Source: a phage
Length of the DNA: 64,000 nt
Assembly: GCA_012646185.1 (NCBI GenBank)
Contig: GCA_012646185.1_4706.1
Direction: 5' to 3' (one strand)
Shown: in pieces, positions 10,209-46,887 of the stretch
How positions within the stretch are numbered: position 1 is the first letter of the stretch
Layout of the letters: each line of letters opens with the position of its first letter
The notes under the pieces: model-generated
What the model was told of the DNA's origin: nothing
What the model saw: the letters and a program-made list of their open reading frames with translations, nothing else
The model's database searches: none
Program-made: the position numbers and the translations under genes

Positions 10209-10287
10209 GGATTTGTGTTGGTCCGTCTCGATGCCCATCGTATTTTATGGATTGTCGAATGACGTCATTTTAAGGGACATCCCCGGC

Positions 10288-10316
10288 CTCCTCCCCAGGA
10301 AAGGTGTGGGGAGGAG
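10288..10316 (+). terminator. GC-rich stem-loop followed by T-run
   Basis: ctcctcccca...tggggaggag then ttttt on the plus strand. Confidence 0.35.
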
Positions 10317-10351
10317 TTTTTATCATACATTCTATTAAATCGAGCGCGATT

Positions 10352-12433
10352 ATGTTGGATAGAATCAATCGTTTAATGAACCGAATAACGGTTAAAAATC
10401 AGAGTAACAACACCGTGCATATCGGGGGTATCGATGCCTGGCGTCTTTCAGATGACATTCAGCGAATATGGGGTACCTCCCGATTTATGAAACATATGTT
10501 TCGTAATTTCTCTTCTAGTGGACTCAGTCTCCACAACTTTTACCTTCCCGATTTCGTTTATATTCTCGAAACGATCATCGAAGCAAAGAATACCCGTAGC
10601 AACAAACGCATGCTGAAACACCTTATTGAGGTACTGCTACAGGAAACCTGGCTGCAAAATACCACAATCGAGCAACCTGCAATCCTCGATAAAGCACGCA
10701 TGAACAAAATGCTAACGCTCTCTTTGTTCGATTATCAAGATGAGTTTATCGACATCTATAACCGTAACGTACCTAAATACCGACTGAAAGGATACGTGTG
10801 CGCGATGGGTGCTGGTGCGGGTAAAACAATCACCGCATTGGCTTTAAGCGCCGCAATGAACGTCGACGTATTTGTGGTCTGCTGTCCTAAGAACACCATG
10901 CGTTCAGCATGGCAATCCGATGTAAACAAAGCCATCGTTGACCCCGCAACAGAAACCGCGTTCTGGTCAGACACAATGCCACCATCACAGCTGCAGAAAA
11001 GCGATAAGTATTATTTTCTGCATTACGAATCGATGGGTTTATTAAACGATGTAATGATCAAGCATAAACGCACAGCGAAGCGCGTTCTTATTGTTGTTGA
11101 CGAAAGCCATAACTTCAACGACAAGAACAGCCAACGTTCCCAACGACTGGTTGATCTTGTACAGACAATGCGTCAAACCATGAATGCGGATGTGCACGTC
11201 TTGTTTATGTCGGGTACGCCTGTTAAACAAATGGGTTCTGAGATGATCCCCTGTTTAGGTTGTATCGACCCGATGTTCCAAGGACAGGTGGTCGATAGCT
11301 TCAAATCAATTTACGGTTTAACCAGCAGTCGCGCTAACGATATCCTCAGACATCGTCTTGGGTTCATGATGCATGTCGTACCTAAAGAGGCTTATCGTAA
11401 AACCCGTCCGGAAGTTCAGGACGTTTACGTGAAGCTCCCTAACGGTAGCGATTATACCATCTCAAGTATCCGCGACGACATGGCGGTATTTGTACGCGAT
11501 CGGGCGAAGTATTACAAGGATAACTGGGGGCATTACAGAAAGATTTTTGATGACGCCTTGGACTACTATCGTAAGACTATTCGTACCGATGGTGAACGTA
11601 AAGAGCTATCTCGATACGAATCGATTGTTACTCGTTTCCAGAAAGGTTACGATCCCGTCAGAGACAAAGAAGATGCGATGTTCTGCAATACGTTTGAAAA
11701 ACGAGCGATCATGCCGGTTCTTCCTTCCGATTTAAGGATCGCTTTCAAAGACGCCAAGAGCGTCATCAAGTACGTTGGGTTGAAAATTCAGGGTGAAGCG
11801 TTAGCGCGCGTTCTCGGTGCAGCCCGCATTCGGTGTCATGTCGACATGGTGGAGTACATCGACTTCGAAGGGTACATCAACAACGCTGAAGCCAAAGTGT
11901 TGATCTTCACGTCGTACGTTCAGGTGGTTGAGCGCGTCGACAACCTGCTTCGTGATGCGGGTTTCTTACCGGAACCCATTTACGGGAAGACCAACAAAAA
12001 CATCAACCAAATACTTGCTCGTCTACGCGATGATCCTGACAGCGGTCCCGCTATTGCAACATTTGATAGCTTAGCTGAAGGGGTTCCGATGCTGATGTGT
12101 AATGTCGGCCTTTTCCTGAACAACCCGTGGCGTTCATCCGATGAAATCCAAGCCATCAGCCGTCTCGATCGCGTAGGACAAACGCAGCCTGTTCGGATTT
12201 ATCGTTTCATGTTGGATACAGGAAGCGAGGGTAACGTTTCTACACGTAGCCACGAAATCATGGAGTTAAGTCGACAGCTTGTTGAAGAAATCACGGGTGT
12301 CAAATATGTTGTGAACAAGCAAGATGATGTTAACTTGCAAGAAACGTTGGCAATGGAAGGATACGACCAATACGTTACCGTAAACACCACGGAATACGAT
12401 ATTAAACCACGACCTGCGTTCTTGGAATGGTGA
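10352..12433 (+). CDS. SNF2-family SF2 helicase/ATPase
   Basis: Walker A GAGAGKT, motif II VVDESH, motif VI QAISRLDRVGQ; start placed at first ATG after the stem-loop (track ORF begins at 10304 with GTG inside the hairpin). Confidence 0.65.
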   Translation: MLDRINRLMNRITVKNQSNNTVHIGGIDAWRLSDDIQRIWGTSRFMKHMFRNFSSSGLSLHNFYLPDFVYILETIIEAKNTRSNKRMLKHLIEVLLQETWLQNTTIEQPAILDKARMNKMLTLSLFDYQDEFIDIYNRNVPKYRLKGYVCAMGAGAGKTITALALSAAMNVDVFVVCCPKNTMRSAWQSDVNKAIVDPATETAFWSDTMPPSQLQKSDKYYFLHYESMGLLNDVMIKHKRTAKRVLIVVDESHNFNDKNSQRSQRLVDLVQTMRQTMNADVHVLFMSGTPVKQMGSEMIPCLGCIDPMFQGQVVDSFKSIYGLTSSRANDILRHRLGFMMHVVPKEAYRKTRPEVQDVYVKLPNGSDYTISSIRDDMAVFVRDRAKYYKDNWGHYRKIFDDALDYYRKTIRTDGERKELSRYESIVTRFQKGYDPVRDKEDAMFCNTFEKRAIMPVLPSDLRIAFKDAKSVIKYVGLKIQGEALARVLGAARIRCHVDMVEYIDFEGYINNAEAKVLIFTSYVQVVERVDNLLRDAGFLPEPIYGKTNKNINQILARLRDDPDSGPAIATFDSLAEGVPMLMCNVGLFLNNPWRSSDEIQAISRLDRVGQTQPVRIYRFMLDTGSEGNVSTRSHEIMELSRQLVEEITGVKYVVNKQDDVNLQETLAMEGYDQYVTVNTTEYDIKPRPAFLEW

Positions 12434-12440
12434 TTAAGAA

Positions 12441-12464
12441 GCTCTGCATGATGTCAGGCAGAGC
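12441..12464 (+). terminator. stem-loop gctctgc...gcagagc
   Basis: Inverted repeat then TTTATA immediately after helicase stop. Confidence 0.4.
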
Positions 12465-12534
12465 TTTATACTTGCATTTGTTGCAACAATCGTATGACGT
12501 ATACGCGTTGTACTTATTTAATAAGGCAGAATAA

Positions 12535-13986
12535 ATGAAACTTAAACAAAGCTGGAAAGACGAACTTCTCGCGTTAGTAAATAGCAAAAACAGCTTACAG
12601 CTGACATTAGCCGACGTAAAATTTGAACTAACTGAACCGGTAAGCGAAGTGCCCGGAACGGTTGTCGTTACGATCAAACCGAACGATGATAGCCGTTACT
12701 TTAACGAGCAGTCTCTGACCTACATCCGTCGAGACATCGCTAAAAACTTCACCGGGATCCCGTTACGGGTTATCGTTAAAAATGATACCGCCGTAAGGGA
12801 TATCATCAATACGATTGCTGAACGTTACGGATTGGTATTTGACACAACCATCGACTTCCTCGAATCCGAGCTGAATAAGCAGATTACGTTCGAAGACACC
12901 GGTATTAAAGACATTACGGTTCCGGTTGCAAACACGTCTTATGTTTGGGCTGGTAATCTTCAGTTCAATATCGCTAACGATACGTTGAGCTTGATTACGA
13001 TCATCAAGCAAACCAATCTTACGAATCTGGTTTATCTGGATGGTGTTGAATCTAACACATCGGGTTCGTTACTATTAGCAACGACCTCGGTTATCGGCGA
13101 AAACGGAAATGCCGAAACAACTGAAGGTGTCCTTGACGCCGCGTACTTCCAGAATATCCTGAACGTCATGGTTCGTTATGGTGATATTACCAGCGAACAA
13201 ATGCAACAAGCAATGCAGACAATTAACGGAAGCGAAGACGCTCGTAGAGTAGAGGTGCGGTCATACGGTGACGCCGAATTACTGGTAACCACCAAGAAAG
13301 ATTGGGTTATCGGTAGCCTTAAGGGTGCTATGGTTGTTGGTCACGCTTCACCTAAACCAATCCAATACGTTCTTAAAACAAAAGGCGGCACCATTATATT
13401 GTCATTAGATGGTTGGACAAATGTCAATATCGATTGGGGTGATGGGAATAAGACGACGCAGGACTCAGGCGATAATGAATATCAGCACAATTATGCGGAC
13501 ACTACAGAACGTACGATCGTCGCTACGGGTACCCCTACCAACGTTGGAGATACAGACGTACAGCAAAGCTTCACCGGTGGTAACATCACTGAAATCGTTG
13601 ACTGGAACAACGGATTACCTAAGGCCCCATCATTACTTGCAGCGAACAGTTTAACTAAGGTTCCCGATTATATCCCGGCATACTGGACATCGTTAGAAGG
13701 TATGTTTACGCGATGCAGCGCTATTAACGACGTGAACATCACCAAATGGAACACCCGCAACGTTACTTCAATGAAGGACCTCTTCTACGGTTGCGCTACG
13801 TTCAACCAACCGATCGGTTCGTGGGATGTTTCGTCTGTTAAGAATGCAGACAATATGTTGTCTGGGTGCTTCGCGTTCAATCAGGATCTGAGTGGTTGGA
13901 CATTCCCGGCAGGCACTTCACACATCAACTACGACGCCATGACCGCCGCATGGCAGGCTGGTTATAAACCACACTTCACCGAGTAA
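12535..13986 (+). CDS. DUF285/BspA-like repeat protein (possible surface or host-interaction protein)
   Basis: 483-aa ORF; C-terminal tandem repeats MF.RC..N..I.KW.T.NVT.M..LF.GC..FNQ.I..WDVS.V.N...M..GC..FNQDLS.W. Confidence 0.6.
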   Translation: MKLKQSWKDELLALVNSKNSLQLTLADVKFELTEPVSEVPGTVVVTIKPNDDSRYFNEQSLTYIRRDIAKNFTGIPLRVIVKNDTAVRDIINTIAERYGLVFDTTIDFLESELNKQITFEDTGIKDITVPVANTSYVWAGNLQFNIANDTLSLITIIKQTNLTNLVYLDGVESNTSGSLLLATTSVIGENGNAETTEGVLDAAYFQNILNVMVRYGDITSEQMQQAMQTINGSEDARRVEVRSYGDAELLVTTKKDWVIGSLKGAMVVGHASPKPIQYVLKTKGGTIILSLDGWTNVNIDWGDGNKTTQDSGDNEYQHNYADTTERTIVATGTPTNVGDTDVQQSFTGGNITEIVDWNNGLPKAPSLLAANSLTKVPDYIPAYWTSLEGMFTRCSAINDVNITKWNTRNVTSMKDLFYGCATFNQPIGSWDVSSVKNADNMLSGCFAFNQDLSGWTFPAGTSHINYDAMTAAWQAGYKPHFTE

Positions 13987-13999
13987 AAAAAAAAAAAAA
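13985..13999. repeat. A15 homopolymer tract
   Basis: 15 consecutive A overlapping the stop codon of 12535-13986. Confidence 0.9.
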
Positions 14000-14011
14000 T
14001 AGATAGCATAT

Positions 14012-14045
14012 CTTCCTCCCTACCCATAACGGGCGGGGAGGAAGG
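14012..14045. terminator. GC-rich stem-loop between convergent genes
   Basis: cttcctccc...ggggaggaagg followed by ttt. Confidence 0.4.
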
Positions 14046-14061
14046 TTTATGTCAATTTAAC

Positions 14062-14400
14062 TTAGAACCAGAGTTCTTTCATGAAGTAGGCTTCCATATC
14101 GTAGATAAGCCACTCGTCAGGGATTTCTAAAGGATCGTCTTCGGTTAAGGTCAGCATGTGCAGGGCGAACGCACGCTTAATATCGTTCAGCAGTTTCTCG
14201 TCGTCGTAACCTTCGGGTAGTTTACGGTCTACCAGCTGGGTTTGTTTATAGACGTCGCGGAATGCTTCAGGGCTGTGTTTGTCCATCGGAAATTGTTCAG
14301 CAGCCTGAACCATAGAAAGCGTCCAGCTTACAACATTGTAACGCTCACCATTAATTTCACTGAACTGATCATCGATTAAACAGATTTGTTGTACGTTCAT
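14062..14400 (-). CDS. hypothetical protein
   Basis: 112-aa ORF. Confidence 0.45.
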   Translation of the reverse strand: MNVQQICLIDDQFSEINGERYNVVSWTLSMVQAAEQFPMDKHSPEAFRDVYKQTQLVDRKLPEGYDDEKLLNDIKRAFALHMLTLTEDDPLEIPDEWLIYDMEAYFMKELWF

Positions 14401-15290
14401 TCATTTTCTCCATTCTTATCTTGGTCGCAATCACACTCTTCGACGTCTTTCTTACTTAAACGTAAGACACCGAGTGCGGCATGCTTGAGTTCTTGCAACG
14501 CGCTTTTCAGCTGACCTTCTTCATCGAAATCAAAATACTTCTCGTTGTAGCTTAATGCTGGAATCATATTTACGAGAGGTTCGATGGCGGGCATCAGCAT
14601 TTCAATGACGACCTTAGGATCAACAAAGCGTTCAAACCCTTCAGGAAGTTTGCTCGCTACAACCTTATCGTTTTTGATGTAGAATTTGTTCTTGAACAGA
14701 TCGTCAAGAATAGCGTTCTCTTCATCCGTACGTTTTGCGTGAGGACGATCGATCATCTGTACAAACACACCATTCAACGCTTCAGGCAACGTCGGATTTT
14801 CACGAAGATAAGTTCCAGCCGGAATTTCAATATCGATCTTCGTCCACTCAACAACCTGGTGGTCTCGTGTGTAGATGACGTCAACTTCCCACGCCAGGCC
14901 ATCAGCGCTTTCTACGGTGTAACGTGTTTTCGCCTGGCCTTCAGGAGCCATGCGTTCGATCGCGTCAAACATCTCGACTGGAATTTCGACTTCGCTTTCC
15001 GTTGCATCACCTGGACCACGATACACCTTCGTGGTCATGATGTATTTCGGCTCTTCGTTATCGATCTGGATCGCACGTGCGCGCACCTGACCTTTCACAC
15101 CACCAACGGCTGTGTTATCAAACAACCATTGATGTTGCACCATATGTTCGATTTTTGATGCGACTTGACGAAGACGTTCAACACCGTCTTCAGCCAGTTT
15201 ACCAAAGAAGACCAGCTCACGTTCCTGCTGTGTCTCACCACTTAACATCATTAAATTGGCGATTTGTTTCACGCCTCTTACTTGTGACAT
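14397..15290 (-). CDS. hypothetical protein
   Basis: 297-aa ORF. Confidence 0.5.
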   Translation of the reverse strand: MSQVRGVKQIANLMMLSGETQQERELVFFGKLAEDGVERLRQVASKIEHMVQHQWLFDNTAVGGVKGQVRARAIQIDNEEPKYIMTTKVYRGPGDATESEVEIPVEMFDAIERMAPEGQAKTRYTVESADGLAWEVDVIYTRDHQVVEWTKIDIEIPAGTYLRENPTLPEALNGVFVQMIDRPHAKRTDEENAILDDLFKNKFYIKNDKVVASKLPEGFERFVDPKVVIEMLMPAIEPLVNMIPALSYNEKYFDFDEEGQLKSALQELKHAALGVLRLSKKDVEECDCDQDKNGENE

Positions 15291-15358
15291 ACATGCTCCG
15301 GTTATAAGGGCCTACATCGAGGCCCCTCATTGATTTTTGATTCCACCAAACGCTATCG

Positions 15359-18936: not shown

Positions 18937-19081
18937 TATTACTTTCCGATTTAAATGGTTTTATCATACGGTTTACCAATTCCGTTGGAATTTACTATCA
19001 TCATGATAGCATCGGGAATCCCTTCTCTTAGGTTATGTAGGTGTTAATATATCTCCACTGCCGGAGTAAAAGTCGGCAACA

Positions 19082-19567
19082 TTACCCGGCTTTCTGTCGT
19101 AGAGCGTACGGATCCATAGCGTCTGATATATCCGAAACAACCGTGAGAATGAAGCCCTTTATCTGTCTCACTTCGGTCACACGCAATCCTTTATCGTTAC
19201 GGTATACGTTTTCTTCACCAACCAACTTTGGTCGGATAACATAAACGCCATCAACATACGGGAATGTCGAATACGGATAAACACCAATAGAAATGATGTT
19301 TGGATAATCGCCTCGAAGGTCGCGTCCGAACTTATCAACTCGACCATAAATCGTTCCATCCGCACCTTCCACCTCAATGAGATCATTTCGAATATCCTGA
19401 AATAGCTGTTCTAAGGTGTCGGCGGGGTACGCGTATGCGACGCCTAACGCACGATCCTCGATCGTTTTGACATTGAATCCGTTAAGCCAAACAATCCGTT
19501 CATTCGCCCATGTTTCTTCATATACCGTTAACCCATCGCCGTATATGTTGGCGTGTGCTATCTCCAT
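19082..19567 (-). CDS. hypothetical protein
   Basis: 161-aa ORF. Confidence 0.45.
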   Translation of the reverse strand: MEIAHANIYGDGLTVYEETWANERIVWLNGFNVKTIEDRALGVAYAYPADTLEQLFQDIRNDLIEVEGADGTIYGRVDKFGRDLRGDYPNIISIGVYPYSTFPYVDGVYVIRPKLVGEENVYRNDKGLRVTEVRQIKGFILTVVSDISDAMDPYALRQKAG

Positions 19568-19681
19568 AATCTCATTTCCTCTTCTACGTAGAAATAGATG
19601 ACATGTTGGATATACGTTGCCTTTGCATATATTGCTTTATTTCCGTCAGAAATAACGGAAAATAAAAACAACGACATAATT

Positions 19682-19711
19682 CCCTCCCACCTCCACATGG
19701 GAGAGGGAGGG
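19682..19711 (-). terminator. GC-rich stem-loop ccctccc...gggaggg
   Basis: Inverted repeat downstream of gene 19725-20087. Confidence 0.4.
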
Positions 19712-19724
19712 TTATTCGTGTTTA

Positions 19725-20087: not shown

Positions 20088-20119
20088 TATGTTTTCCTCA
20101 GGTGAATGTTAGCAATCGT

Positions 20120-23561: not shown

Positions 23562-23626
23562 GATAACCCTCCCACAGCGTAAAGCGTAGGGAGGGCATTT
23601 ATGCCGTCGTTCGATGACTTAATACA

Positions 23627-26550: not shown

Positions 26551-28137
26551 TTATTTTTTTCCTCTTAAATTTACTACGTGTTCATTTAATCGAACAACTA
26601 ATTGCACAAGCTGCTGACGGATATCTGCTGGACAAAGCATCAATCCTTTACGGTCAGCTGGGACTTTCTCAAGGATTTCCGGGCCTGCTGCTGAAACATC
26701 CCAGTCCCATTCACAAAACGCATCGGCCACCATGTTAATACCGACAACCGGTAAAGTTGTACGTTCATCTTCATACATGGCGTGTGGATACAATTTATTG
26801 ACAGTAATGATCTCCTGTGGTTTTAATTGGTGGATAATCTGATAAACATCGTCGCGTTTGACCTGGATACCTACGGTCAGCGCTGCCAGTTGAGGAAAAC
26901 CCCAATGGTCTAATAAGCAAGCTGCAATCGCTAACGCTTTTGCTTGATGCACGGCTTCAATCGGTGCCAGACTTCTCGCCGGAAGATGGCTATCAAGCAA
27001 CCATTGTGCCAGTGCTCGGCATCCACGGTTGATTGGTTTTAACTCAACGGTGTCATCATGTTTAGCGTACGTGTATCCGTCGTAACGTTTTGCGATACGC
27101 GCATACATGTCTTCAACTTTACCGTAAGGTGCCGTTTCGTCGACGTCGTGCAACACACGTTCCATCTGGGTAAGATACGCGATATCAAGAATGAGTACAC
27201 GCGGTGAACGTTTATCTTTCACCATCAACGCATCAATCACGCCTTGACTGTCTTCATCTTGCGCGTTCCCTCGTGGGGTTTTCTCACGAATCGGTCCGCT
27301 GAAACGTCGTTCCGTACAAAGGTTATTCACATAGCTAAAGATCAGTGTTACCAGATGCGTACAACTCACCAACACCCCATCTTTAACGACAGGCTGTACG
27401 GCTTGGTCCAAGTCGCGTACGGCGAGACGGCGGACGATGGCTTGTGAACGCAACCAGCCGGGCACTTTCTCCGTCGACATGTAATCCACGGTCATCGACA
27501 GCGTGATCTTTTTATCACCCGTCTGTGCGCGGATATAGTCTTCCAGTCGGTCGTAAGCGGCGATATCGTGAATGCGTGTTTTATACATCAACGACATAGC
27601 CACTTCTTCTTTACGAACCGTTCCGTACGTTTTCCCTGCGTCAATCAGAAACTCTGCCCAAATCGGCACCATCAGACGGACGTAGATCGCTAACGCCGTT
27701 AACTCAACGTAATCATTTCGTAAATAGGTTTTCTCAGGAATATCATCCTCACCTAATGTTGTTTTCATGTCCGGCGGTAATTTTACCCAACCCGGGGTAT
27801 TACACAACGCCAGAATCTCTTCGTACACAACCGGTTTGTAAATTTCACCAACAGCGCGACTCAACTCCTCCATTTGTTGTTGTGGAGCAATGTAGTTATC
27901 CATCGCTTCACGTGCTTTAACGAACCCTTCGAAGATGTCGTCAATTCGACGTGGGTTCTTTTGTTCTATCCAGGCGAGATACTTGTTAATCTCCCGCATC
28001 TGATTGCTAGCCATATCCCCATCAATCTTGATGTAACCCTGACCTGAAAATTCCACAGTACGTCCATCACGGTGTTTGATGAGATAGTGATCCAGCTTTT
28101 CTTTTCCTTGCGTCGTAATGACGGGCACTATGTGCAT
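26551..28137 (-). CDS. hypothetical protein
   Basis: Start moved to internal ATG (MHIVPVITTQ); the Arg-rich N-terminal extension in the track looks non-coding; early-promoter-like motif about 60 nt upstream. Confidence 0.5.
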   Translation of the reverse strand: MHIVPVITTQGKEKLDHYLIKHRDGRTVEFSGQGYIKIDGDMASNQMREINKYLAWIEQKNPRRIDDIFEGFVKAREAMDNYIAPQQQMEELSRAVGEIYKPVVYEEILALCNTPGWVKLPPDMKTTLGEDDIPEKTYLRNDYVELTALAIYVRLMVPIWAEFLIDAGKTYGTVRKEEVAMSLMYKTRIHDIAAYDRLEDYIRAQTGDKKITLSMTVDYMSTEKVPGWLRSQAIVRRLAVRDLDQAVQPVVKDGVLVSCTHLVTLIFSYVNNLCTERRFSGPIREKTPRGNAQDEDSQGVIDALMVKDKRSPRVLILDIAYLTQMERVLHDVDETAPYGKVEDMYARIAKRYDGYTYAKHDDTVELKPINRGCRALAQWLLDSHLPARSLAPIEAVHQAKALAIAACLLDHWGFPQLAALTVGIQVKRDDVYQIIHQLKPQEIITVNKLYPHAMYEDERTTLPVVGINMVADAFCEWDWDVSAAGPEILEKVPADRKGLMLCPADIRQQLVQLVVRLNEHVVNLRGKK

Positions 28138-28186
28138 AACAACCTCTTTTCGCGGTTCCCTGTTAAAACGTCTTCTGTGACGTCTA

Positions 28187-28213
28187 CCACAAAGGTAATA
28201 TAAGCGTGAATAA
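28187..28213 (-). promoter_or_regulatory. early-promoter-like motif (minus-strand ...TTATTCACGCTTATATTACCTTTGTGG)
   Basis: Contains TATATTAC; upstream of gene 26551-28137. Confidence 0.5.
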
Positions 28214-35257: not shown

Positions 35258-35617
35258 CAAAATCTTCAGTATGAATCGCTACTTCATACCCGCAGCATTA
35301 CCTGCAGCTCCTGGTGTTACCAGGATGTTGAGAGTATATCATGCCCATATTCCAAATGGAACGTAGGACTTCCGCGCTGGATCTCGCTTGAGACCACTTA
35401 CTCGTTGAACGTTCTCCTAAACGGAGCTTCGCTGCTGATTGGACATTGTTACGTACGGTAGGCGTCCCATTAAAGGGATTTTCATTGAAGCCGCGTACAT
35501 CCGTTACCTTGTTTCTACCTTATCGGTTCCTCTTACGAGGCGTAACGGCTTTAGCCTATTCCAGCAATTCACGGAATGCATATTCTCCTTTTCAGGAGAT
35601 AAGGCCATGGCTCTGGC
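35258..35617 (-). ncRNA. putative self-splicing intron 1 (ORF-less, group I-like), boundaries approximate
   Basis: About 360-nt hairpin-rich sequence between DFDGD codons and resumption of beta-prime homology; tandem relative of intron 2. Confidence 0.5.
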
Positions 35618-35632
35618 ATCACCGTCAAAGTC
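35618..35632 (-). CDS. RNA polymerase beta-prime micro-exon encoding DFDGD (proposed)
   Basis: Minus-strand codons GAC TTT GAC GGT GAT; flanked by the two intron copies; exon 1 ends ...GYNA. Confidence 0.5.
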
Positions 35633-35982
35633 CACATATCTTCAGTATGAATCGCTACTTCATACCCGCAGCATTACCTGCAGCTCCTGGTGTTACCAGG
35701 ACGGAGAGATCATCTCATCACCCACGAAGGGTGTTCCGCGCTACCCTCAGCGAATTCGAGGGACATGATCGTTGAACCTTCCACCGATAATCGGTGGCTA
35801 GGCTGCTGATTAAACATTGTACGTTGGGGTGGCATCCTGGTTCAGGACTGTCGTTGAAGCCTCCCAACATCCACTCACTTATTTCCGCCTTATCGGCTCC
35901 CATAAGGGCAGAGTGGCTTTAGCCCGTCTCAGCAATTCACGGAATTCAAGCTCTTCCTTTCAGAAGGCAGGGCCTCATCTGA
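35633..35982 (-). ncRNA. putative self-splicing intron 2 (ORF-less, group I-like), boundaries approximate
   Basis: Follows the codon for Ala of ...KGYNA (exon ends in U); RNA ends in G just before GAC of DFDGD; track ORF reads 17 codons into it then stops. Confidence 0.5.
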
Positions 35983-37233
35983 AGCATTGTATCCCTTAAG
36001 GATCATCACGCTTAACCCGATGGTGTTATCCTGCGGATCGCGTTTAACCTTGGTGATTTCAAGACATTGGTTACTGCTTCGGTCAAGTGATGGGTTTCGA
36101 ACAAAGCCGCACACAATCCCATCGAACGGCGTATCAGCAATAAGCTCATCGTGCAGCTCGCTCATCATCGGATGATAATTACGGACATGTTCCGCAACGA
36201 ACGCACGCGCTGCTCTCGGTGAGTAACCACGATGGAATAACTTGGATTGGATATGTTCTTTATTGGTTAAAGTAAATGGTGCGTATGGGAAATGCAGATG
36301 ATAATAACGATGGTTCGCTGTTATCGAACTGATTACGGTACGCGTGGTGAATGGATGTAATGTACCTAATATGTTTTTACGTGTAATACCTTTCTTCTTA
36401 CCGATGAACTCATCGAAAATCGCTGCGTGGTATTGCAGTAGCTTCAATTGCACTTTCGCCATCCAGTTTTCTTTCTTTCTGGCGCTCAAAGGTGTTGTTG
36501 GATGATAGATACTGTTCAACGTACCAATAGCATCGATCGCACCTTCCATTTTGCTATCCGCATAACGACCGGTCGGCGTATTTTCGATAACGAACATCAT
36601 GGCTGCAGGAAAGCTGATATACTGACTGAAGAACTTATCACGATGGATACGGATGAATTCTCGTAGCGTGTCAACTTTCTCCATGTTCTTCGGTCCACGT
36701 AACGTCGGTCCTTTATACAAGATCTCCATGATGCGATCGAAGTTCTGTATAAAGCTATTTACGCCACGCCGTATCCCGAATACATCGAATTGCTGCTCCA
36801 GATAGTTCTTGAGTTCGATGGGTCGTTTTACATTTGGACGGTAACTGGCATCAATGAGCCACGTCATCGTTTCAAAGCTTTTGATATTCAACTCGCTTGC
36901 CAGCACGAGATGGACCAACGGGTTAATGAACGCATCGATTCCTTCAGGAACGCGCGCCCAAACCGTCGAACGAATCTCTTGTTCTGCTGGGTAGGTTACA
37001 ACCGTTTTACAGTTTGGACACACCGTGCCGAGTAGCTCACCACGATTGTAGAAACCACAACCACATTGTGGTGTGATATCCAACGTATCGCTGGAGTAAA
37101 CACGGGTGATAAAACTGTTTAATTTCTTCTTCTCTTCGACGACTTTTGTATCGTAATCATTCAACAAAATCGGCGTGAAAGGAAGTTCTGCGAGCTGTCT
37201 ATCGAAACTCACGATATCGAGCATGATGGCCAT
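35983..37233 (-). CDS. RNA polymerase beta-prime N-terminal subunit, exon 1
   Basis: Zn-finger CGCGFYNRGELLGTVCPNCKTVV (compare CxCGKY...C..CGVEV); NPSLDRSS (compare NRQPSLHK / NRAPTLHR); IGLSVMILKGYNA (compare LNLSVTSPYNA) immediately before the missing DFDGD. Confidence 0.65.
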
Positions 37234-37275: not shown

Positions 37276-37299
37276 GGGAGGGAGGTTGCCCTCCCTCCC
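37276..37299 (-). terminator. GC-rich stem-loop gggagggagg-ttgc-cctccctccc between chimallin candidate and beta-prime gene
   Basis: Perfect 10-bp inverted repeat. Confidence 0.45.
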
Positions 37300-37325
37300 G
37301 TCAGATTACATCGAACGTTCTTCCA

Positions 37326-39221: not shown

Positions 39222-39283
39222 TTGGGATTCCTCTTTTCTTAAACTTTATTAAATGACGTCATTGAATCAGCTTCTACTCGCTC

Positions 39284-39311
39284 ATTCACCTAGGTAATAT
39301 AACCCTGAAAT
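39284..39311 (-). promoter_or_regulatory. early-promoter-like motif (minus-strand ATTTCAGGGTTATATTACCTAGGTG)
   Basis: Contains TATATTAC; upstream of 37326-39221; palindrome AATGACGTCATT at 39252-39263 in the leader. Confidence 0.5.
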
Positions 39312-39475
39312 TTTTTTCAATATTGGTGTAACCACATTGAACGATATAAACCCCCAGGCGAACGCTGCCGAGAAGCAACATTCTTTCTACATATAATCAG
39401 GATATGTCTGTAAACTTTTACTTCTCTTATTGAGAGTAATGTCATATCCGTTTACTACCTTCTTACGGAGTTCGT

Positions 39476-40570: not shown

Positions 40571-40591
40571 TCACCTCCCTCTTCCCTTGCA

Positions 40592-40620
40592 TCCTCCCAA
40601 CCCGTAAGGGAAGGGAGGAT
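40592..40620. terminator. GC-rich stem-loop between convergent genes
   Basis: tcctcccaaccc-gtaa-gggaagggagga. Confidence 0.4.
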
Positions 40621-40636
40621 GGGGTGGTGGATTATG

Positions 40637-42790
40637 TTACTCTGCGGTTTCTTGCTTCGGTAAATAACTTGCTGCAATGTCTTGGGCTAACAATGTATTG
40701 TTTTTATTCGAGATGAAAATACCGTAACTTTCCATTAACGCGTAATACGAACGCACGAGCGTAGAGATCAATCGACGAATATCCATACCTTGAATAAAGA
40801 TATCGGGAAGCCCGGAGGCTTCGATCACCGGTAATGGTATCGTTAAGTTGCTTATCGTTTTCTTATCGTTACGTACAATCCAATCACGGAAACGTTGTTG
40901 TAACCCTTTATCCTCCCAGGAATCAATCCAATCGTTAAGAAGCGTTTTGTTCTTCGTCGCCAACGGCACACGAACCCCAACATAGGGTGGTTCCTGGCAA
41001 TGGCCGTACGATTGAGCAAACACCTCTTCCCACATATCGTAAGACTGTTTCGTTACTGCAACATGCGGTTTCACTTTAACACGTGTTAAGAAATCGGGAT
41101 CACCTCGTTTCATGGACTCAACGATTTCGTTTTCTAACGAGATAATATCATCAAGAACCAATCGAATGCTGATCTTCTCATTACGTAACAGCTTATCCAT
41201 GATACCACACATCATGCGTTCAACACGTTTGACGATCATTTTTGGTGCTGACGCATCACGCATAACAGGACCTTTCAATTCCAGCTTCGGTGGATTGATA
41301 GGAACCCCTTCACGCATGGTCATGTAACCGTAATAGTTTTTACCCATCGAGGTTAACGACAGAATCAAGAACATATATTCGTTCTTCATTTCCATTACGT
41401 ACATATGCTCTTTCGCTACACCGATATTACCAGAACACATCGCCATCAGATGAACCGTAATCTGCGTAACCAGATAGATAAGCGTATTTGCTAAGCGCGT
41501 CGAAACTGGATTGATCTCCATATTTCCAAATCGCCACTGAACCCACTCCTGGCAGGTAAACACCGTCGAGTCGGTATCAGACAACACACCCACTTCACGG
41601 ATTGCTGATGGGAAAGCATAAACGCCAGCCGGTTGGTTCTCGGTACGCCAGAACGCCATAATCAAATCAGCATAGCTTTGAATACGCTGTAGCATTAATT
41701 TTGTCGTTGCTGCAGTAAGACGATAACCAAGCTCATTTCCTTTTTCTAGCGCTACGTAAATCGCTTCCCCGTTCAAGAACTCCGTGCATTGTGCTGTAAT
41801 CCAAGCGACCGTGTTGTTATCCATGGAAGCAATAATGGCTTTAGCCTCTTCCATCGTTTCAACCGGTTCGGATGCCAGTTCACATAACGAGTCAAGAAAA
41901 TCTCGAACAAATTCAGGATTAAGCTCACGTAACGAGTACAGGTTATTGCTGTACATGTAGCAGGCACGTTCCAGTGGGGTTAAACCAGTAATTAACTCCC
42001 GGATAATCAGTTCTTTCTCTGGGTCGAAAGTATATCGATGCAAGCATTTCGATACGTTAGCCCAAACCTCTTCCGGTGTAGGGTAATGTAATTTGTATTT
42101 TACCATTACCTGTTCAATGGCTTTACGATCGCTGTTACGGACAATACTTACGATGTTTTCGATTGCGATATCACAATCGTAATAATGGAAATTGCCCGCA
42201 AGGAAGCGTTCGTTGTTCGCATTGGCTGAACCTGAAGCACAGCGACATGTTGTCGTTAAACTTGGATGCGCGATCGGATTATAAAAAGGGTTAAACTTGG
42301 ACGCCTGGGTTCCTGACAAACTGTTGTTATCTAACTTGGTGTTGGTTTGTCGTTTATCGTGTAACTCAGCTTCATCTTTACGTCCGTGTGCTTGTGCTAT
42401 CGACATTTGTTTCTTTTGTTTCTTACGCAACTTACCGTTTTCAACCGCGAAGTCGCTTAGCACACTGGAGCGTGTCTCACGTGGGTAACAGTTAGCCCAC
42501 ACCGGCGTGATAATTAAATTATTTTCTTTAATATCGTTGAAGTATTGGCTGAACTTGATGACTTCTTTTTCTCGATTTCCTTCGGTACGCTGTGTTAATA
42601 CAAGACAGTCGGGATCAACCATCCCGTATTTTCCACCAGGACGAACCGTTTCAAGAACAAACTGCAACGCTTCCTGCTGTGATATCCCACGCATGCGCAT
42701 TAAGAACAGGGTATAATCCTGTACCGCTTCTTTGGTCATATCCAACGTACGACCATATCCGTTTTCATCGTAAAAGAACGGATTTTCCAT
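40637..42790 (-). CDS. hypothetical large protein
   Basis: 717-aa ORF; contains SDTDS but no ordered polymerase motif set. Confidence 0.5.
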   Translation of the reverse strand: MENPFFYDENGYGRTLDMTKEAVQDYTLFLMRMRGISQQEALQFVLETVRPGGKYGMVDPDCLVLTQRTEGNREKEVIKFSQYFNDIKENNLIITPVWANCYPRETRSSVLSDFAVENGKLRKKQKKQMSIAQAHGRKDEAELHDKRQTNTKLDNNSLSGTQASKFNPFYNPIAHPSLTTTCRCASGSANANNERFLAGNFHYYDCDIAIENIVSIVRNSDRKAIEQVMVKYKLHYPTPEEVWANVSKCLHRYTFDPEKELIIRELITGLTPLERACYMYSNNLYSLRELNPEFVRDFLDSLCELASEPVETMEEAKAIIASMDNNTVAWITAQCTEFLNGEAIYVALEKGNELGYRLTAATTKLMLQRIQSYADLIMAFWRTENQPAGVYAFPSAIREVGVLSDTDSTVFTCQEWVQWRFGNMEINPVSTRLANTLIYLVTQITVHLMAMCSGNIGVAKEHMYVMEMKNEYMFLILSLTSMGKNYYGYMTMREGVPINPPKLELKGPVMRDASAPKMIVKRVERMMCGIMDKLLRNEKISIRLVLDDIISLENEIVESMKRGDPDFLTRVKVKPHVAVTKQSYDMWEEVFAQSYGHCQEPPYVGVRVPLATKNKTLLNDWIDSWEDKGLQQRFRDWIVRNDKKTISNLTIPLPVIEASGLPDIFIQGMDIRRLISTLVRSYYALMESYGIFISNKNNTLLAQDIAASYLPKQETAE

Positions 42791-42865
42791 AAATCCTCCA
42801 AAAGTTATTTAGTCTGTCTACATCATCTCGTATATCTGTTAAAAAAGAAGGACGGCATAAAAAAG

Positions 42866-42893
42866 AACCGATCCAGCCGAAGCCAGATCGGTT
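42866..42893 (-). terminator. rho-independent-type terminator (minus strand)
   Basis: aaccgatc...gatcggtt 8-bp stem followed on the minus strand by a U-run (plus-strand aaaaaag at 42855-42861). Confidence 0.5.
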
Positions 42894-43088
42894 AAAAAGG
42901 ATAATAACTGACAGAAAGATATCGATGATGTTCGTGAAACAAGATCTTCTCTCGTGTACAATGATGCTAGATCAGAGGGAGGTTGTAACACGAGAGGTGG
43001 TCCGCCAAAGAAGGAATAAAAACACGAACCTATCTTATTTCACTGATGGCACTAACCACTCAAAATATATAGTACTGTATGTAAAAGT

Positions 43089-43502
43089 TTACTGATTAAT
43101 CAAGTCGTTAGCAACAATCTTGGTGTAACCCGCCTGATTAAGAATTTGATTAATTTTCGTCACGTCGGTCGCATCCTCAATAACGATGCTGGGTTTATAG
43201 ATCAGCGTCTTGGTAACGACGATTGTACTCTCCTTAATCCAAGGAATCCCTAGAATCACATACTCGCCGTCGGCTGTAATGACCTCGACGTAATTGTATT
43301 TCGTCGGATCGTTCGGTACACTAGACGGGAGCCGGGAATAAATCTGTTGGTGAATGGCATCTACATCACGACCGTTACGTACAGCTGTGCGATAATTGTA
43401 CACAGCGCTAATTTCTACTCCGTTGAAGTTAACCCCAAGTTCTGGGGCGTACACATCAAAACTCACAACAGAGCCAATCTTTTCTAAATCAGAAGCTGGC
43501 AT
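43089..43502 (-). CDS. hypothetical protein
   Basis: 137-aa ORF. Confidence 0.45.
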   Translation of the reverse strand: MPASDLEKIGSVVSFDVYAPELGVNFNGVEISAVYNYRTAVRNGRDVDAIHQQIYSRLPSSVPNDPTKYNYVEVITADGEYVILGIPWIKESTIVVTKTLIYKPSIVIEDATDVTKINQILNQAGYTKIVANDLINQ

Positions 43503-43513
43503 AATAGCATCCT

Positions 43514-43912
43514 TTATTTAAAAATGTATTCATATCCGAAAGTCGTCGCTGACCAGACCCGGATAGATGATAGTGTTCCGCCACGATAAAACGTTTTTGT
43601 GAATTCCATATCCTGGACAACACGATAATAAACACGTCCGATAATACGCACGATAAGGTTTCGTGATAACGATCTCTCCTCGCAGTATTCATCGATAAAG
43701 TCATCGTCGATATCCGATAAGACAACATCCGCAATTTCTTGCAGTAGATTCCTCATCAGCATCTGCCTTCCTTCGGTACCCCACCCAGACAAACAGTAAT
43801 CGTCTTCTGCCTGACTATAGATGTCGTTAACCGCCTGTTCGAGCAGTTGCTCAAGATAGTAGTCATCGCGTTTTATAACGTGGCGACGGCGCTCAGTGGC
43901 GTATTTTTCCAT
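43514..43912 (-). CDS. hypothetical protein (start uncertain; track ORF extends to 44035)
   Basis: Internal ATG (MEKYATERRR) chosen to limit overlap with 43873-44361. Confidence 0.35.
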   Translation of the reverse strand: MEKYATERRRHVIKRDDYYLEQLLEQAVNDIYSQAEDDYCLSGWGTEGRQMLMRNLLQEIADVVLSDIDDDFIDEYCEERSLSRNLIVRIIGRVYYRVVQDMEFTKTFYRGGTLSSIRVWSATTFGYEYIFK

Positions 43913-44361
43913 CCTGTGTTTCTCTTGTTCGGCGTATGTATTAACGACGCCACAGTCTTTTCTGGATCGTCCCACAATGCACGACGAAAACTGGATACTA
44001 CCATAACGGTAGGATAGATTTGTACAACCTCCCATCCGTAACGATGTGCGTTAGTCGTACGTCCGACATTGAACAGACATAGCTGATTTAAGAAACAGAG
44101 CTGCATCTTCGTAAACAACACCATGTCTTCACGTTTAACGTATCCGAGGATATACGCATTCTCGAACGCCTCGCGTGACAAGACGGGACGATTAAGATAC
44201 CGTAACGCTAATACCAACAACGTTGTTATGCGCAACGGATCTTCTGGGTCATTCATGGTACTCAGCTCTGCTTGTAACCAGTCAGGGATAGTAACCGTCA
44301 GACGATAGGTATCTGTTCCACGATCAACCACATTCAATGTTGAAAAAGGCAACATATCCAT
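43873..44361 (-). CDS. hypothetical protein
   Basis: 162-aa ORF. Confidence 0.4.
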   Translation of the reverse strand: MDMLPFSTLNVVDRGTDTYRLTVTIPDWLQAELSTMNDPEDPLRITTLLVLALRYLNRPVLSREAFENAYILGYVKREDMVLFTKMQLCFLNQLCLFNVGRTTNAHRYGWEVVQIYPTVMVVSSFRRALWDDPEKTVASLIHTPNKRNTGWKNTPLSAVATL

Positions 44362-44899
44362 GAATTCCTTCTAGCTCGAGGTTGTTCTCGCCGGTCTTCG
44401 GTAATAACCCACTGGCCGTTAACATCTGTGTCATCGAGTAGTCAAAGCACGGGAATATCAGGTTAACGGTTTCCTGGATCGCGTCAACATAACTATAAAT
44501 GGCTTCATAATACTCACCGTCATGATCTACGCTAACCAGTTCCTGACACAGTTCTTCGCTTATCATTTCATATACCGGTGGATACCACGATTGAAATGGT
44601 CGCTGCATACGTAACGACCAGTACTCGTACGTTGTATACTGAAGCACGTCATAAGCCGATACGTTAATGCGGTCGAAGAAAGCATACTTGTCCATATGCT
44701 GGTACAACATCGCCAACACGGTTTCCAAGCACACCGATATCCGCACGCCGTCATCTTTCCCGTTAAGAAAATTAGGTTTCTGCCGATAACGCACAAATGC
44801 CGACGGCCTTGATTGCATTATTCCACCACCAACCATAACGTCATACTCGTATCTAACGTAAAATTGAAATGCCACCAATCTTCTACACGTGGAATCCAC
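44324..44899 (-). CDS. hypothetical protein (start uncertain, possibly ATG at 44818)
   Basis: 191-aa ORF. Confidence 0.4.
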   Translation of the reverse strand: MDSTCRRLVAFQFYVRYEYDVMVGGGIMQSRPSAFVRYRQKPNFLNGKDDGVRISVCLETVLAMLYQHMDKYAFFDRINVSAYDVLQYTTYEYWSLRMQRPFQSWYPPVYEMISEELCQELVSVDHDGEYYEAIYSYVDAIQETVNLIFPCFDYSMTQMLTASGLLPKTGENNLELEGIHGYVAFFNIECG

Positions 44900-45501
44900 G
44901 TACGAAGGATTTGGTTAACTTCGCTTCGCATCACCGATAAACGACAACGAAAATCGAACTTCTCATCGTGGCCGTAGTCTTCATGCATGAAAACTTCATC
45001 CAAAACGAACTCAAGTTGCATGTCGACATCGCGGCCAGAGATATTCCGTTTGTACAAATACAGTTCAATCGTGTCGTAAAGCAACGTATGAATATCATAA
45101 TTTCCGTTCGGTGAGAAATAAGGTAATCGCTCATCGAGCATCGAAAACAGATATTCACTGTAGTTTAATAACGGGATGATGTATCGACGCCCTGTCTGTG
45201 GTGTGCGAATATGTATCGAAACCTGACTTGGGCGCGGAATAACCGACGGCTTAGAATCGTCTCTCTGAAATTGCTCTAAAGATCGCAACAAAGGTGGCCG
45301 CATTGTAACTCTCCAACGCCCAATTGTAAGGCCCTTCCAACATGTGTTCCCATACGTGAATAAACTCACTACCGAAGACAGGCTCCAGCGCCATGGTGAG
45401 ATTCGTAAGTTCTGACGCAGCCGCATGGTAAGCATCAACATGTCTTTCCATTGACGGATCGTCTTCATTGAAAATACGTTCTGTGTCGCCAGCCCGCTCA
45501 A
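44818..45501 (-). CDS. hypothetical protein (N-terminal third likely non-coding)
   Basis: 227-aa ORF; R/W-rich N-terminus, plausible start at MLDERLPYF. Confidence 0.35.
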   Translation of the reverse strand: MSGLATQNVFSMKTIRQWKDMLMLTMRLRQNLRISPWRWSLSSVVSLFTYGNTCWKGLTIGRWRVTMRPPLLRSLEQFQRDDSKPSVIPRPSQVSIHIRTPQTGRRYIIPLLNYSEYLFSMLDERLPYFSPNGNYDIHTLLYDTIELYLYKRNISGRDVDMQLEFVLDEVFMHEDYGHDEKFDFRCRLSVMRSEVNQILRTWIPRVEDWWHFNFTLDTSMTLWLVVE

Positions 45502-45712
45502 TAAGTTCGGTAATGAGATCTGTCCATGTCTCGTGACACGTCATCATTTCCTGTTCTCGACTTAGTATGCCGATGTCTGCGTGGACGCTGGACTCGAACC
45601 GGTCTAAAAGGACCCGAAGAACGTGCACCTTGTCGATGTATTTCACCGTTATCCAGGAAAGCGGTTGCCACCGACTCAGCATCCATCCGGTACTCGGGAA
45701 CCCCAAACTCAT
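45251..45712 (-). CDS. hypothetical protein, possibly the frameshifted continuation of 45498-46475
   Basis: Track ORF 45251-45880 overlaps the upstream ORF by 383 nt in another frame. Confidence 0.3.
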   Translation of the reverse strand: MSLGFPSTGWMLSRWQPLSWITVKYIDKVHVLRVLLDRFESSVHADIGILSREQEMMTCHETWTDLITELIERAGDTERIFNEDDPSMERHVDAYHAAASELTNLTMALEPVFGSEFIHVWEHMLEGPYNWALESYNAATFVAIFRAISERRF

Positions 45713-46475
45713 ATAGTACGGGTTGCACCGGACCGAAGACGGAGCGACGTTGTTTAAATCGTTCCTTAAGGGCAAGGCCTTGTTTAATATAAACGGGTTC
45801 ATTGGCGAGCTGTTCCGCTTTTCGTTTTGCGTGAGCCAATCGAAGTTCTTCCAATTGCCCAAGCCATTCAAATTGTTCATCTGTTAGCTCCTGGGGACGT
45901 TCAACAATCGCGCCAGACGGGCAGATATTGATCGTAATGTTAATTGACGGCATCGCCATCACTCGAGGATTACTATTACGTACGCGGACAACATGTTCGG
46001 TTGCTGATTTACGATCGACGCAATACTCTGTTTCTTGGAACTCAAATGCTTTTAACGGCGTTGGTTTTGTTTGATGTTTAGGAACGCGGCCAAGATCAAC
46101 AATATAGGCATAATCGCACACACGTTCTATTCCGTAAATACGGTTATCCGACCAGTTCTTACCAAACAGCTTGTTGTGATGATAAGACAGATATTCGGTT
46201 ACCATACCCTGGACAACATCGAAGTCTTCTCGAAATTCAGGTTGGTACCAAATCGGACCGAGAATATCTGCGAACGATTCATGACGATATCGAGGATCAT
46301 GTCGAGTCCAGGTCATTCTCTGATTAAGATCGAAATCCACCAACAACTCGGTTAATTGCAATTTTTCCTTCGGAGAAAGCTGGCGTTGATGATGCAAACT
46401 CAGACAATCGATAAGCGGTAATGAAACCCACGATGCTAATGTGTACAAATCGATCCTGGCTAATCTCTTGGTCAT
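45498..46475 (-). CDS. hypothetical protein (C-terminal tail Arg-rich, probably out of frame)
   Basis: 325-aa ORF. Confidence 0.4.
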   Translation of the reverse strand: MTKRLARIDLYTLASWVSLPLIDCLSLHHQRQLSPKEKLQLTELLVDFDLNQRMTWTRHDPRYRHESFADILGPIWYQPEFREDFDVVQGMVTEYLSYHHNKLFGKNWSDNRIYGIERVCDYAYIVDLGRVPKHQTKPTPLKAFEFQETEYCVDRKSATEHVVRVRNSNPRVMAMPSINITINICPSGAIVERPQELTDEQFEWLGQLEELRLAHAKRKAEQLANEPVYIKQGLALKERFKQRRSVFGPVQPVLYEFGVPEYRMDAESVATAFLDNGEIHRQGARSSGPFRPVRVQRPRRHRHTKSRTGNDDVSRDMDRSHYRTY

Positions 46476-46566
46476 ACTCTTTTCCTAAGTCCCCATTGTT
46501 TATACACACGATATCTGGGAATAGTTAAAATATACGGCGTAAAACGAAGCAGGAGAGTTTCTGACG

Positions 46567-46887
46567 TCATTTTCTCCCTCTTCGAATACTACCGATACCT
46601 CTTTCGTCTAAGACGTCCCAGGCACGCTTTATTTCATCCTCCGTTGCTCTGGTATCTGGAGGGACAACCATAACACAGTCATGGAATGGCCAATGTGTAG
46701 GTCTGGGGTTAGCGAACAAATCATCCCATTCAAATGTCCATTCTTTCTTTGAGCGATTGTAGTAGAGCGTAAGGTACGTGTTGGTATACGCTGGATAACC
46801 ATGCATCACTTCAATATCCTTACGATCTTGCCGTTCCTGATTCCAATCGTTAAACCGCTTTCTTATTTTCTCCCACCACTTTCCCAT
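46567..46887 (-). CDS. hypothetical protein
   Basis: 106-aa ORF. Confidence 0.45.
   Translation of the reverse strand: MGKWWEKIRKRFNDWNQERQDRKDIEVMHGYPAYTNTYLTLYYNRSKKEWTFEWDDLFANPRPTHWPFHDCVMVVPPDTRATEDEIKRAWDVLDERGIGSIRRGRK

Follow-up and report, generated by a model that had tools for sequence, protein, structure and literature searches.

Copies of a short palindrome in a relative of the jumbo phage Goslar and a palindromic element in the leader of the nuclear shell gene

The phiKZ-like phages transcribe their genes with RNA polymerases of their own (PMC4666361). The early promoters of phiKZ type, which are used by the virion RNA polymerase and stand in intergenic DNA ahead of early genes, have an AT-rich consensus whose core lies ~10 bp upstream of the start (PMC4666361, PMC11512511), and the late promoter of phiKZ carries the motif TATG, with transcription starting at the G (PMC4666361). 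Small RNAs that arise by termination just past the start, and that come from the untranslated 5' region (5'UTR), have been reported for 201phi2-1 and phiKZ (PMC11512511). Here, we describe a 64,000-nucleotide (nt) stretch of phage DNA (contig GCA_012646185.1_4706.1, hereafter the window) in which the palindrome TGACGTCA recurs. Two of its copies lie within the perfect 12-mer AATGACGTCATT: one in the 5' leader of chmA, the gene of the nuclear shell protein chimallin, and one at 10258, upstream of a helicase gene. Of the features known from phiKZ and 201phi2-1, this DNA has the early core TATATTAC, a TATG that may serve as a late start and a predicted unit in which a terminator closely follows a start ahead of a gene.

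We favour, with modest confidence, the reading that the copies of TGACGTCA are unrelated occurrences of a short palindrome rather than one regulatory system, and that two of them sit in separate, better-supported elements. In the chmA copy we would see a family-wide element, the palindrome of the shell-gene leader, in its Goslar-lineage form. The copy at 10258 would lie in the 5' portion of a short unit that runs from a late-type TATG start to a terminator-like hairpin and precedes the helicase gene.

The window is a close relative of the Escherichia coli jumbo phage Goslar (Escherichia phage vB_EcoM_Goslar), a 237-kb nucleus-forming member of the Chimalliviridae: a 12-kb piece of the window matches it at 98.2%, and the whole window is colinear with its positions 132.7-197.6 kb at 94-97% identity (96-98% over the aligned blocks). 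The complete Goslar genome with its 247 annotated genes, of which 7.06% is non-coding, served as the genome-wide reference. The phage collection held no close relative of Goslar besides Goslar itself, and relatives were drawn from metagenome assemblies. These comprise Goslar-like genomes with 94-99% ChmA identity, a sister clade with identities of 46% in ChmA and 57% in the helicase (both loci lying on one 255,398-bp contig) and, as a third comparison at the helicase locus, a contig with 62% helicase identity. Intermediate relatives were reached by searches with the helicase and ChmA, and were not found with the HD-domain protein as the query. The Goslar-like genomes are too alike for a selection test at 10258 or 39252. 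From the positions, counts, conservation and comparative patterns observed in these genomes we infer start sites, a short transcript and possible functions.

The palindrome in the chmA leader

In the window, the palindrome of the chmA leader comes directly after a predicted 5' hairpin of the transcript (Table 1). The 12-mer AATGACGTCATT is present in all Goslar-like chmA leaders, including that of a relative with 94% ChmA identity in which the leader flanks are altered. The sister clade has a matching promoter, in which the wider motif AAATTTCAGGGTTATATTACCTA is kept as well, and has another palindrome in this place, either TTGTCGACAA or TGTCGACA. Folds of four leaders predict a stem-loop at the matching place in the sister clade too, with a shorter stem in its second contig, L016; over the whole of these four leaders, the z-scores of the folds were not significant. 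About 40 nt upstream of the chmA early core, at 39341-39354, the minus strand has GGGGTTTATATCGT, which the Goslar-like phages share with the sister clade. Its portion TTTATATCGT resembles the late-promoter motif and may mark a second chmA promoter.

A survey of 21 chmA leaders across the family found a perfect palindrome of at least 12 nt at the matching position in 15, and one of 10 nt in one more. The palindromes are 10-18 nt long and end 25-41 nt before the chmA ATG; where a core was found, which was so in 15 leaders, they start 24-37 nt past it. For PhiPA3, the distances are counted on the assumption that translation begins not at the annotated start but at an in-frame ATG upstream of it, which has a good ribosome-binding site. 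An element so delimited is present in the window and in 15 other leaders (L032, L036, L037, L039-L041, L047-L049, L052-L055, L062 and L063), 14 of them with a core. Within 100 nt of the annotated chmA ATG, a palindrome of at least 12 nt was found in 13 of the 18 leaders tested, while in 2000 rounds of shuffling these leaders the number averaged 0.66 and never exceeded 4; outside the leaders, the density of such palindromes at these loci is 0.025 per 100 nt.

The sequence at this position varies between lineages, with at least six distinct versions (Table 1), and is held within a lineage while the surrounding leader diverges. Thus, TTCTTGATCAAGAA is identical at -38/-39 in phiKZ, RVTF4, Psa21 and PA1C despite their differing flanks, and the core CTTGATCAAG is kept in PhiPA3, Phabio and D6, its flanks being altered symmetrically in PhiPA3 and Phabio. 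In every chmA palindrome the symmetry spans the central four bases, and the element invariably lies inside the predicted transcribed leader. As far as comparative sequence evidence goes, the chmA palindrome is clearly a family-wide cis-element under selection. A plain hairpin fails to explain this pattern, because it leaves the central bases unpaired and unconstrained. Palindromy through the centre, a sequence held within lineages and a place in the transcribed leader together suggest that the recognised form must be two-fold symmetric: either a DNA duplex just downstream of the start, to which a dimer binds, or a duplex of two RNA molecules.

The element would tune shell-gene expression, and would most likely do so at the level of the transcript. 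We lean to this level because of the position in the leader and because the major capsid gene, whose transcription is late and presumably carried out by the other polymerase, has a leader palindrome as well: a perfect one was found in all three genomes checked (Goslar, Proteus phage 10 and phiKZ; Table 1). The phiKZ capsid-leader palindrome TCCTACGTAGGA also stands ahead of Goslar gp055 (60909-60920). Ahead of Goslar gp58, outside the window at 65117-65132, lies CACATTAGCTAATGTG, which includes the exact 14-mer of the RAY and Proteus phage 10 chmA leaders; here the layout is likewise a hairpin, the palindrome, ~25 nt and the ATG. A general class of leader palindromes in Goslar was considered and found unconvincing, as palindromes of at least 12 nt at 10-50 nt before start codons number 7 against 3.7 expected (P = 0.08). 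Leader palindromes were also considered as an explanation of the downstream requirement of the phiKZ late promoter P119L and were rejected, as no palindrome of at least 8 nt lies downstream of P119L.

A palindromic leader element is not described in the papers on phiKZ and 201phi2-1 (PMC4666361, PMC11512511), and no description of these motifs or of the chmA-leader palindrome was found in the open-access literature. The chmA-leader palindrome is apparently undescribed so far.

The leader unit of the helicase gene

The perfect copy at 10258 begins 9 nt past a putative late-type TATG start that is conserved across three clades, and overlaps a conserved element that is unique in the Goslar genome. 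Within this element, TTTTATGG occupies 10243-10250, and its TATG at 10246-10249 fits the phiKZ late-promoter motif; the motif is short, and the start at 10249 is a prediction from sequence. The motif is supported by a family of seven exact modules in Goslar in which a hairpin is followed by TTTATGCCGT, and which look like combined terminators and late promoters. Further instances of it occur in the sister clade (L032, 19075; L034, 9964). In the window, terminator hairpins run straight into TTTATGCCGT at 23598 (plus strand) and at 42852 and 46900 (minus-strand motif).

From the predicted start, a unit of 73 nt would comprise a 5' stem-loop with the palindrome, the hairpin CTCCTCCCC/GGGGAGGAG (10288-10316) and a T-run at 10317-10321, with a fold energy of -27.9 kcal/mol. 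The hairpin is annotated as a terminator in Goslar. A hairpin with a T-run stands in the helicase leader of all three clades, with differing sequences, and in the clade with 57% helicase identity a second late promoter, TTTATGCCGT, follows the hairpin and precedes the helicase ATG. The consensus fold of the three helicase leaders was weak, the coordinates being off for one of the sequences. Judged by its architecture, the predicted unit at 10249-10321 may be akin to the small RNAs that 201phi2-1 and phiKZ derive from 5'UTRs, in which an intrinsic terminator comes within 250 nt of the start, or to attenuators. In IMG/VR, pattern scans for the helicase-leader element returned Goslar-like genomes, three apparently unrelated, coding-looking matches and nothing else.

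The palindrome itself is not part of what the clades share. In the sister clades, the site at 10258 reads AATGACCCCA or AATGATCCCT: the left half AATGA is conserved (plus C in one of the two), and the right half is not. The palindrome at 10258 would thus be a remodelling, in the Goslar lineage, of the conserved TGTCGAATGA.

Two side observations concern the helicase of a relative and the hairpins of Goslar. A metagenomic relative encodes a helicase homologue of 1044 amino acids (L023, 5482-8616) with a LAGLIDADG-type insertion, which is probably an intein. In the non-coding DNA of Goslar, for the most part beyond the window, near-identical hairpins (CCTCCTCCAACCCGTAAGGGAAGGAGGA and variants) occur seven to nine times, both genome ends included (for example at 27745-27777, 48105-48130 and 71985-72020); the one at 27746-27777 is an annotated terminator.

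Other copies and possible links between the sites

The sequences and positions in the preliminary description of this DNA were exact: AATGACGTCATT at 10258-10269 and 39252-39263, CTGACGTCATTTT at 46561-46573 and GTGACGTCT at 28177-28185. Its statement that all of these copies are intergenic holds for 10258, 39252 and 28177 and does not fully hold for the copy at 46562, whose final bases form the stop codon (46567-46569) and the last sense codon of the minus-strand open reading frame (ORF) 46567-46887. The gp236 homologue that provides the context of this copy is absent from the sister clade. The window holds six copies of TGACGTCA in total, not three, the additional ones lying inside long ORFs (Table 1).

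Three of the copies were said to lie within 70 nt of the early-promoter-like motif TATATTAC. The distances are right, and no shared geometry goes with them: the copy lies 30 nt downstream of the core at 39252, 9 nt downstream at 28177 and 58 nt upstream at 10258. Exact TATATTAC cores number four in the window (10192, 28195, 33473 and 39294), all on the minus strand and ahead of genes, and Goslar has about 12 early promoters with a common extended consensus around this core, only two of which are followed downstream by GACGTC. By their sequence, the TATATTAC promoters match the early promoter that the virion RNA polymerase of phiKZ uses, with predicted start sites. In most of them the core is flanked by an inverted repeat (TTTCACGgcTATATTACttaCGTGA) in the extended consensus, and several early-promoter transcripts open with a predicted hairpin. 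The half-variant at 28177, which follows the early core at 28195-28202, shares only the GACGTC core with the other copies. The copies at 46562 and 28177 and those in coding sequence are most likely due to chance.

The 8-mer is ordinary on the scale of the genome. In the window, TGACGTCA was observed 6 times against 1.68 expected, and 6 or more were reached in 2 of 100 shuffles; the 10-mer TGACGTCATT has 3 sites (5 strand matches) against 0.28 expected. The chance expectation of about 0.1 given earlier applies to a 10-mer named beforehand and does not hold for a motif picked afterwards. Goslar has 11 copies of TGACGTCA, 8 coding and 3 non-coding (0.8 non-coding expected), and each of twelve other 8-nt palindromes has 13-27 copies there. 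The core GACGTC shows no enrichment in Goslar non-coding DNA (6 against 5.8 expected). What is unusual is the recurrence of the 12-mer in non-coding DNA: among the 88 palindromic 12-mers of Goslar, AATGACGTCATT is the sole one to recur, with both copies non-coding. By our own arithmetic, ~19 chance repeats of a 12-mer are expected in the 17.7 kb of non-coding DNA, and much stronger repeat families, those of promoters and terminators, occur there.

On such figures one could hold that all copies, that of chmA included, are functionless chance occurrences in AT-rich intergenic DNA, which is what the expected number of chance repeats, the mildly raised count of the 8-mer and the weak overall enrichment of leader palindromes in Goslar would allow. 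We consider this improbable as a whole, and refuted for the chmA copy, since family-wide positional conservation in chmA leaders cannot be chance and since the element is kept in the relative with 94% ChmA identity while its flanks change.

Several observations count against the reading that we favour, in which the copies are unrelated. The recurrence of AATGACGTCATT in non-coding DNA has P = 0.008 by shuffling, and P ~0.022 (own arithmetic) conditional on the 14 non-coding palindromes present. A third copy, of 10 nt, stands at a gene junction (46562). Owing to this copy and to the improbable recurrence of the 12-mer, the sites may be linked within the Goslar lineage. In the sister clade, too, the chmA palindrome and the helicase-leader element have a 6-mer, TGTCGA, in common, which might point to a relation; such a match between two short regions is not rare, its chance being ~0.02-0.4, depending on the region limits (own arithmetic). 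As for the two elements themselves, a simple terminator scan did not call the hairpin at 10288-10316. At the chmA position, the palindrome is absent from 4 of the 21 leaders (Eowyn, Noxifer, RSL2 and Bacillus phage AgentSmith), and L016 has just the 8-nt TGTCGACA; the surveyed phages are mutually related, so that their leaders are non-independent trials.

The sites might be linked by a dimeric DNA-binding protein of the Goslar lineage whose site is AATGACGTCATT or TGACGTCA. Bound in the leaders of chmA and the helicase gene and at the gp236/gp237 junction, it would co-regulate these genes, perhaps by acting as a roadblock that the RNA polymerases of the phage meet. The singular recurrence of the palindromic 12-mer in non-coding DNA and the third copy of 10 nt speak for such an operator, as do the perfect symmetry through the centre, which fits a dimer, and the conservation of chmA palindrome sequences within lineages. 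Goslar also has candidate DNA-binding proteins, namely gp115, weakly similar to a transcriptional regulator, and gp119, with a SANT/Myb domain. Yet no protein is tied to the motif as its cognate, and the copies take no consistent position: two follow early cores, at 30 and 9 nt, one precedes such a core by 58 nt and comes 9 nt after a late-type start, and one overlaps a stop codon. Furthermore, the palindrome at 10258 is absent in the sister clades, where the chmA palindrome TTGTCGACAA is not repeated at this site and only TGTCGA is common to the two loci. A multi-site set was sought in one other genome and rejected: the chmA palindrome of Proteus phage 10 has no second intergenic copy. To our knowledge, natural operators are rarely perfect over 14-18 bp. 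In Pfam, no family was found for four proteins encoded beside three of the sites. Overall, a shared operator appears unlikely.

The earlier proposal of an operator for a phage or host regulator is therefore upheld only in part. The chmA copy does lie in a selected, two-fold symmetric element, and its recurrence is mildly improbable, whereas common geometry and co-conservation are lacking. Nucleus-forming phages enclose their DNA, which shields the genome from host nucleases. This enclosure, together with the use of phage-encoded RNA polymerases, makes a host regulator unlikely. The earlier observation is real, and the unifying operator idea is weakly supported, given the differing settings of the copies and the non-conserved palindrome at 10258 in the sister clades; no annotation of TGACGTCA as a regulator-binding site is warranted.

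A link at the level of RNA can also be conceived, in which, more generally, abundant mRNAs would pair with themselves through their leader palindromes. The predicted short RNA from 10249-10321, which carries AAUGACGUCAUUUU, could pair with the chmA leader and the gp236/237 junction in the minus-strand mRNAs and so adjust the synthesis of shell protein late in infection; since the sequence is palindromic, identity in AATGACGTCATT amounts to 12 nt of complementarity to the chmA leader. When 246 translation-initiation regions are compared, contiguous complementarity to the 34-nt 5' part of the RNA is longest at chmA (12 nt, the next best having 9), and the sole other 12-nt match in the genome is at the gp236/237 junction, over a shifted stretch of 12 nt. 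The unit of promoter, conserved 5' sequence and terminator is kept in three clades, small RNAs of like architecture are known in related phages, and an intermolecular duplex requires perfect central palindromy where a hairpin does not. Against this stand the sister clade, in which the two loci of the single 255-kb contig are complementary over only 6 nt and 44 of 50 targets rank ahead of chmA (45th), and an energy-based duplex score, which places chmA 20th in Goslar. In addition, the ranking is partly circular, since it was the match that gave rise to the hypothesis. Duplex predictions with the full RNA were dominated by the GC-rich terminator and were uninformative. We regard the pairing as improbable. 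The same holds for the broader picture that it would complete, in which an ancient family-wide control of the shell gene through a two-fold duplex is joined in Goslar by the short late RNA, whose pairing with the chmA leader and the gp236/237 junction ties shell synthesis to the late programme; this, too, is a long shot. A link between the two perfect copies is unproven, a shared protein site being doubtful and RNA pairing still more so.

The preliminary description had also suggested a nuclease recognition site, and GACGTC is indeed the AatII site, a palindromic hexamer core typical of type II sites; moreover, HNH endonucleases are carried by this phage family, so that a homing-endonuclease target might be imagined. 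Nevertheless, nothing indicates such a role. GACGTC is not avoided in Goslar (78 against ~58 expected for a random hexamer) and is neither depleted nor enriched, its non-coding counts are those expected, relatives carry unrelated palindromes at the chmA position, and the phage genome is shielded from host nucleases. A restriction-type or homing site is thus very improbable.

The window departs from Goslar in two further places. Relative to Goslar 168164-169661, ~1.1 kb is missing from the window at 35577-35984, and in Goslar this DNA carries the gene of an HNH endonuclease together with the larger part of a group I intron, beside the gene of the RNA polymerase beta subunit. Another divergent block lies at 2949-3663. 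At the gathering score, Rfam gave no match in the entire 64-kb window.

Table 1. Features of the two leaders, remaining copies of the palindrome and leader palindromes of related phages. Positions refer to the window unless another genome is named.
Feature	Position	Strand	Remark
chmA, nuclear shell protein (chimallin) gene, 631 amino acids	37326-39221	-	97.9% identity to Goslar nuclear shell protein; PF25677
AATGACGTCATT in chmA 5' leader	39252-39263	-	-42 to -31 from ATG; starts 30 nt past early core
Predicted 5' stem-loop of chmA transcript (TGAATGAGC...GCTGATTCA)	39263-39288	-	Minimum-free-energy fold
chmA early promoter core TATATTAC	39294-39301	-	Virion RNA polymerase type
Conserved element TTTTATGG-N2/3-TGTCGAATGA	10243-10262	+	Three clades
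Predicted 73-nt transcription unit (short leader RNA or attenuator)	10249-10321	+	Upstream of SNF2/DEAD helicase gene 10352-12433
Second perfect AATGACGTCATT copy	10258-10269	+	+10 to +21 of predicted late-promoter transcript
Early promoter core of HD-domain gene (9457-10143, -)	10192-10199	-	10258 palindrome 58 nt upstream
Partial copy TGACGTCATT	46562-46571	-	Over stop codon of ORF 46567-46887; 87 nt upstream of ATG of ORF 45498-46475
Half-variant AGACGTCAC	28177-28185	-	Leader of gp175 homologue
TGACGTCA coding copy	14876-14883		Within ORF 14397-15290
TGACGTCA coding copy	57877-57884		Terminase large subunit gene
TGACGTCA coding copy	62516-62523		Within long ORF
chmA leader palindrome AATGACGTCATT			This window, Goslar
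chmA leader palindrome TTCTTGATCAAGAA			phiKZ, RVTF4, Psa21, PA1C
chmA leader palindrome TACTTGATCAAGTA			PhiPA3
chmA leader palindrome TTAACTTGATCAAGTTAA			Phabio
chmA leader palindrome TCTTGATCAAGA			D6
chmA leader palindrome ACATTAGCTAATGT			Erwinia RAY, Proteus phage 10
chmA leader palindrome CAATCGCGATTG			Salmonella SA002, Erwinia SNUABM_37
chmA leader palindrome GCTTTGCAAAGC			Ralstonia RP12
chmA leader palindrome ACACACTCGAGTGTGT			Burkholderia FLC9
chmA leader palindrome TGTTCGCGCGAACA			Xanthomonas LucasX
Major capsid leader palindrome ACTTATATAAGT	Goslar 45685-45696		Outside window
Major capsid leader palindrome AACTTATATAAGTT	Proteus phage 10 220834-220847 (L046)		Near-identical to that of Goslar
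Major capsid leader palindrome TCCTACGTAGGA	phiKZ 13250-13261 (L051)		Over ribosome-binding site

Significance and comparison with known systems

Chimallin builds the phage nucleus and is probably among the first and most abundant products of infection. A conserved, position-fixed palindrome in the leader of its gene spans phages of E. coli, Pseudomonas, Erwinia, Salmonella, Proteus, Ralstonia, Burkholderia and Xanthomonas. It would offer an easily mutated handle on the control of the shell gene, and possibly a part for engineering or silencing phages that are candidates for therapy.

The 8-bp palindrome TGACGTCA is identical to the eukaryotic cyclic AMP response element (CRE), a symmetric site that dimers of the basic leucine zipper (bZIP) proteins CREB/ATF read through its centre. 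The bZIP factors are eukaryotic, and, unlike the CRE, the sequence TGACGTCA is not itself conserved, as related phages have unrelated palindromes at the chmA position. Closer to the host, MetJ-type ribbon-helix-helix dimers read short perfect palindromes, and the minus strand at 28177 (AGACGTCA) fits the E. coli met box (AGACGTCT, in tandem 8-bp repeats) at 7 of 8 positions. Met operators need at least two adjacent boxes in 8-bp register; the site at 28177 is a single 7/8 box with none adjacent in register, the next AGACGT being 12 nt away, and a MetJ operator was rejected there. Host repressors, moreover, should not reach the enclosed phage DNA.

Among RNA elements, dimerisation sites are the nearest in kind: the dimerisation initiation site (DIS) loop of human immunodeficiency virus 1 (HIV-1) has a 6-nt palindrome, and the oskar and bicoid mRNAs have dimerisation loops. 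The likeness, useful as a lead only, consists in perfect palindromes in leaders or untranslated regions that vary between lineages and show symmetric double substitutions. Those sites, however, are 6 nt long and sit in a hairpin loop, whereas the chmA palindromes are 10-18 nt long with no enclosing loop, and their dimerisation is hypothetical. Stem-loops that stabilise mRNA at the 5' end, such as that of the ompA leader, offer the last comparison: the chmA leader likewise has a predicted hairpin at the 5' end, and between it and the ribosome-binding site comes a second element, short and self-complementary. Stabilising hairpins need no self-complementary loops, whereas in all lineages that carry a chmA element its symmetry is unbroken across the centre.

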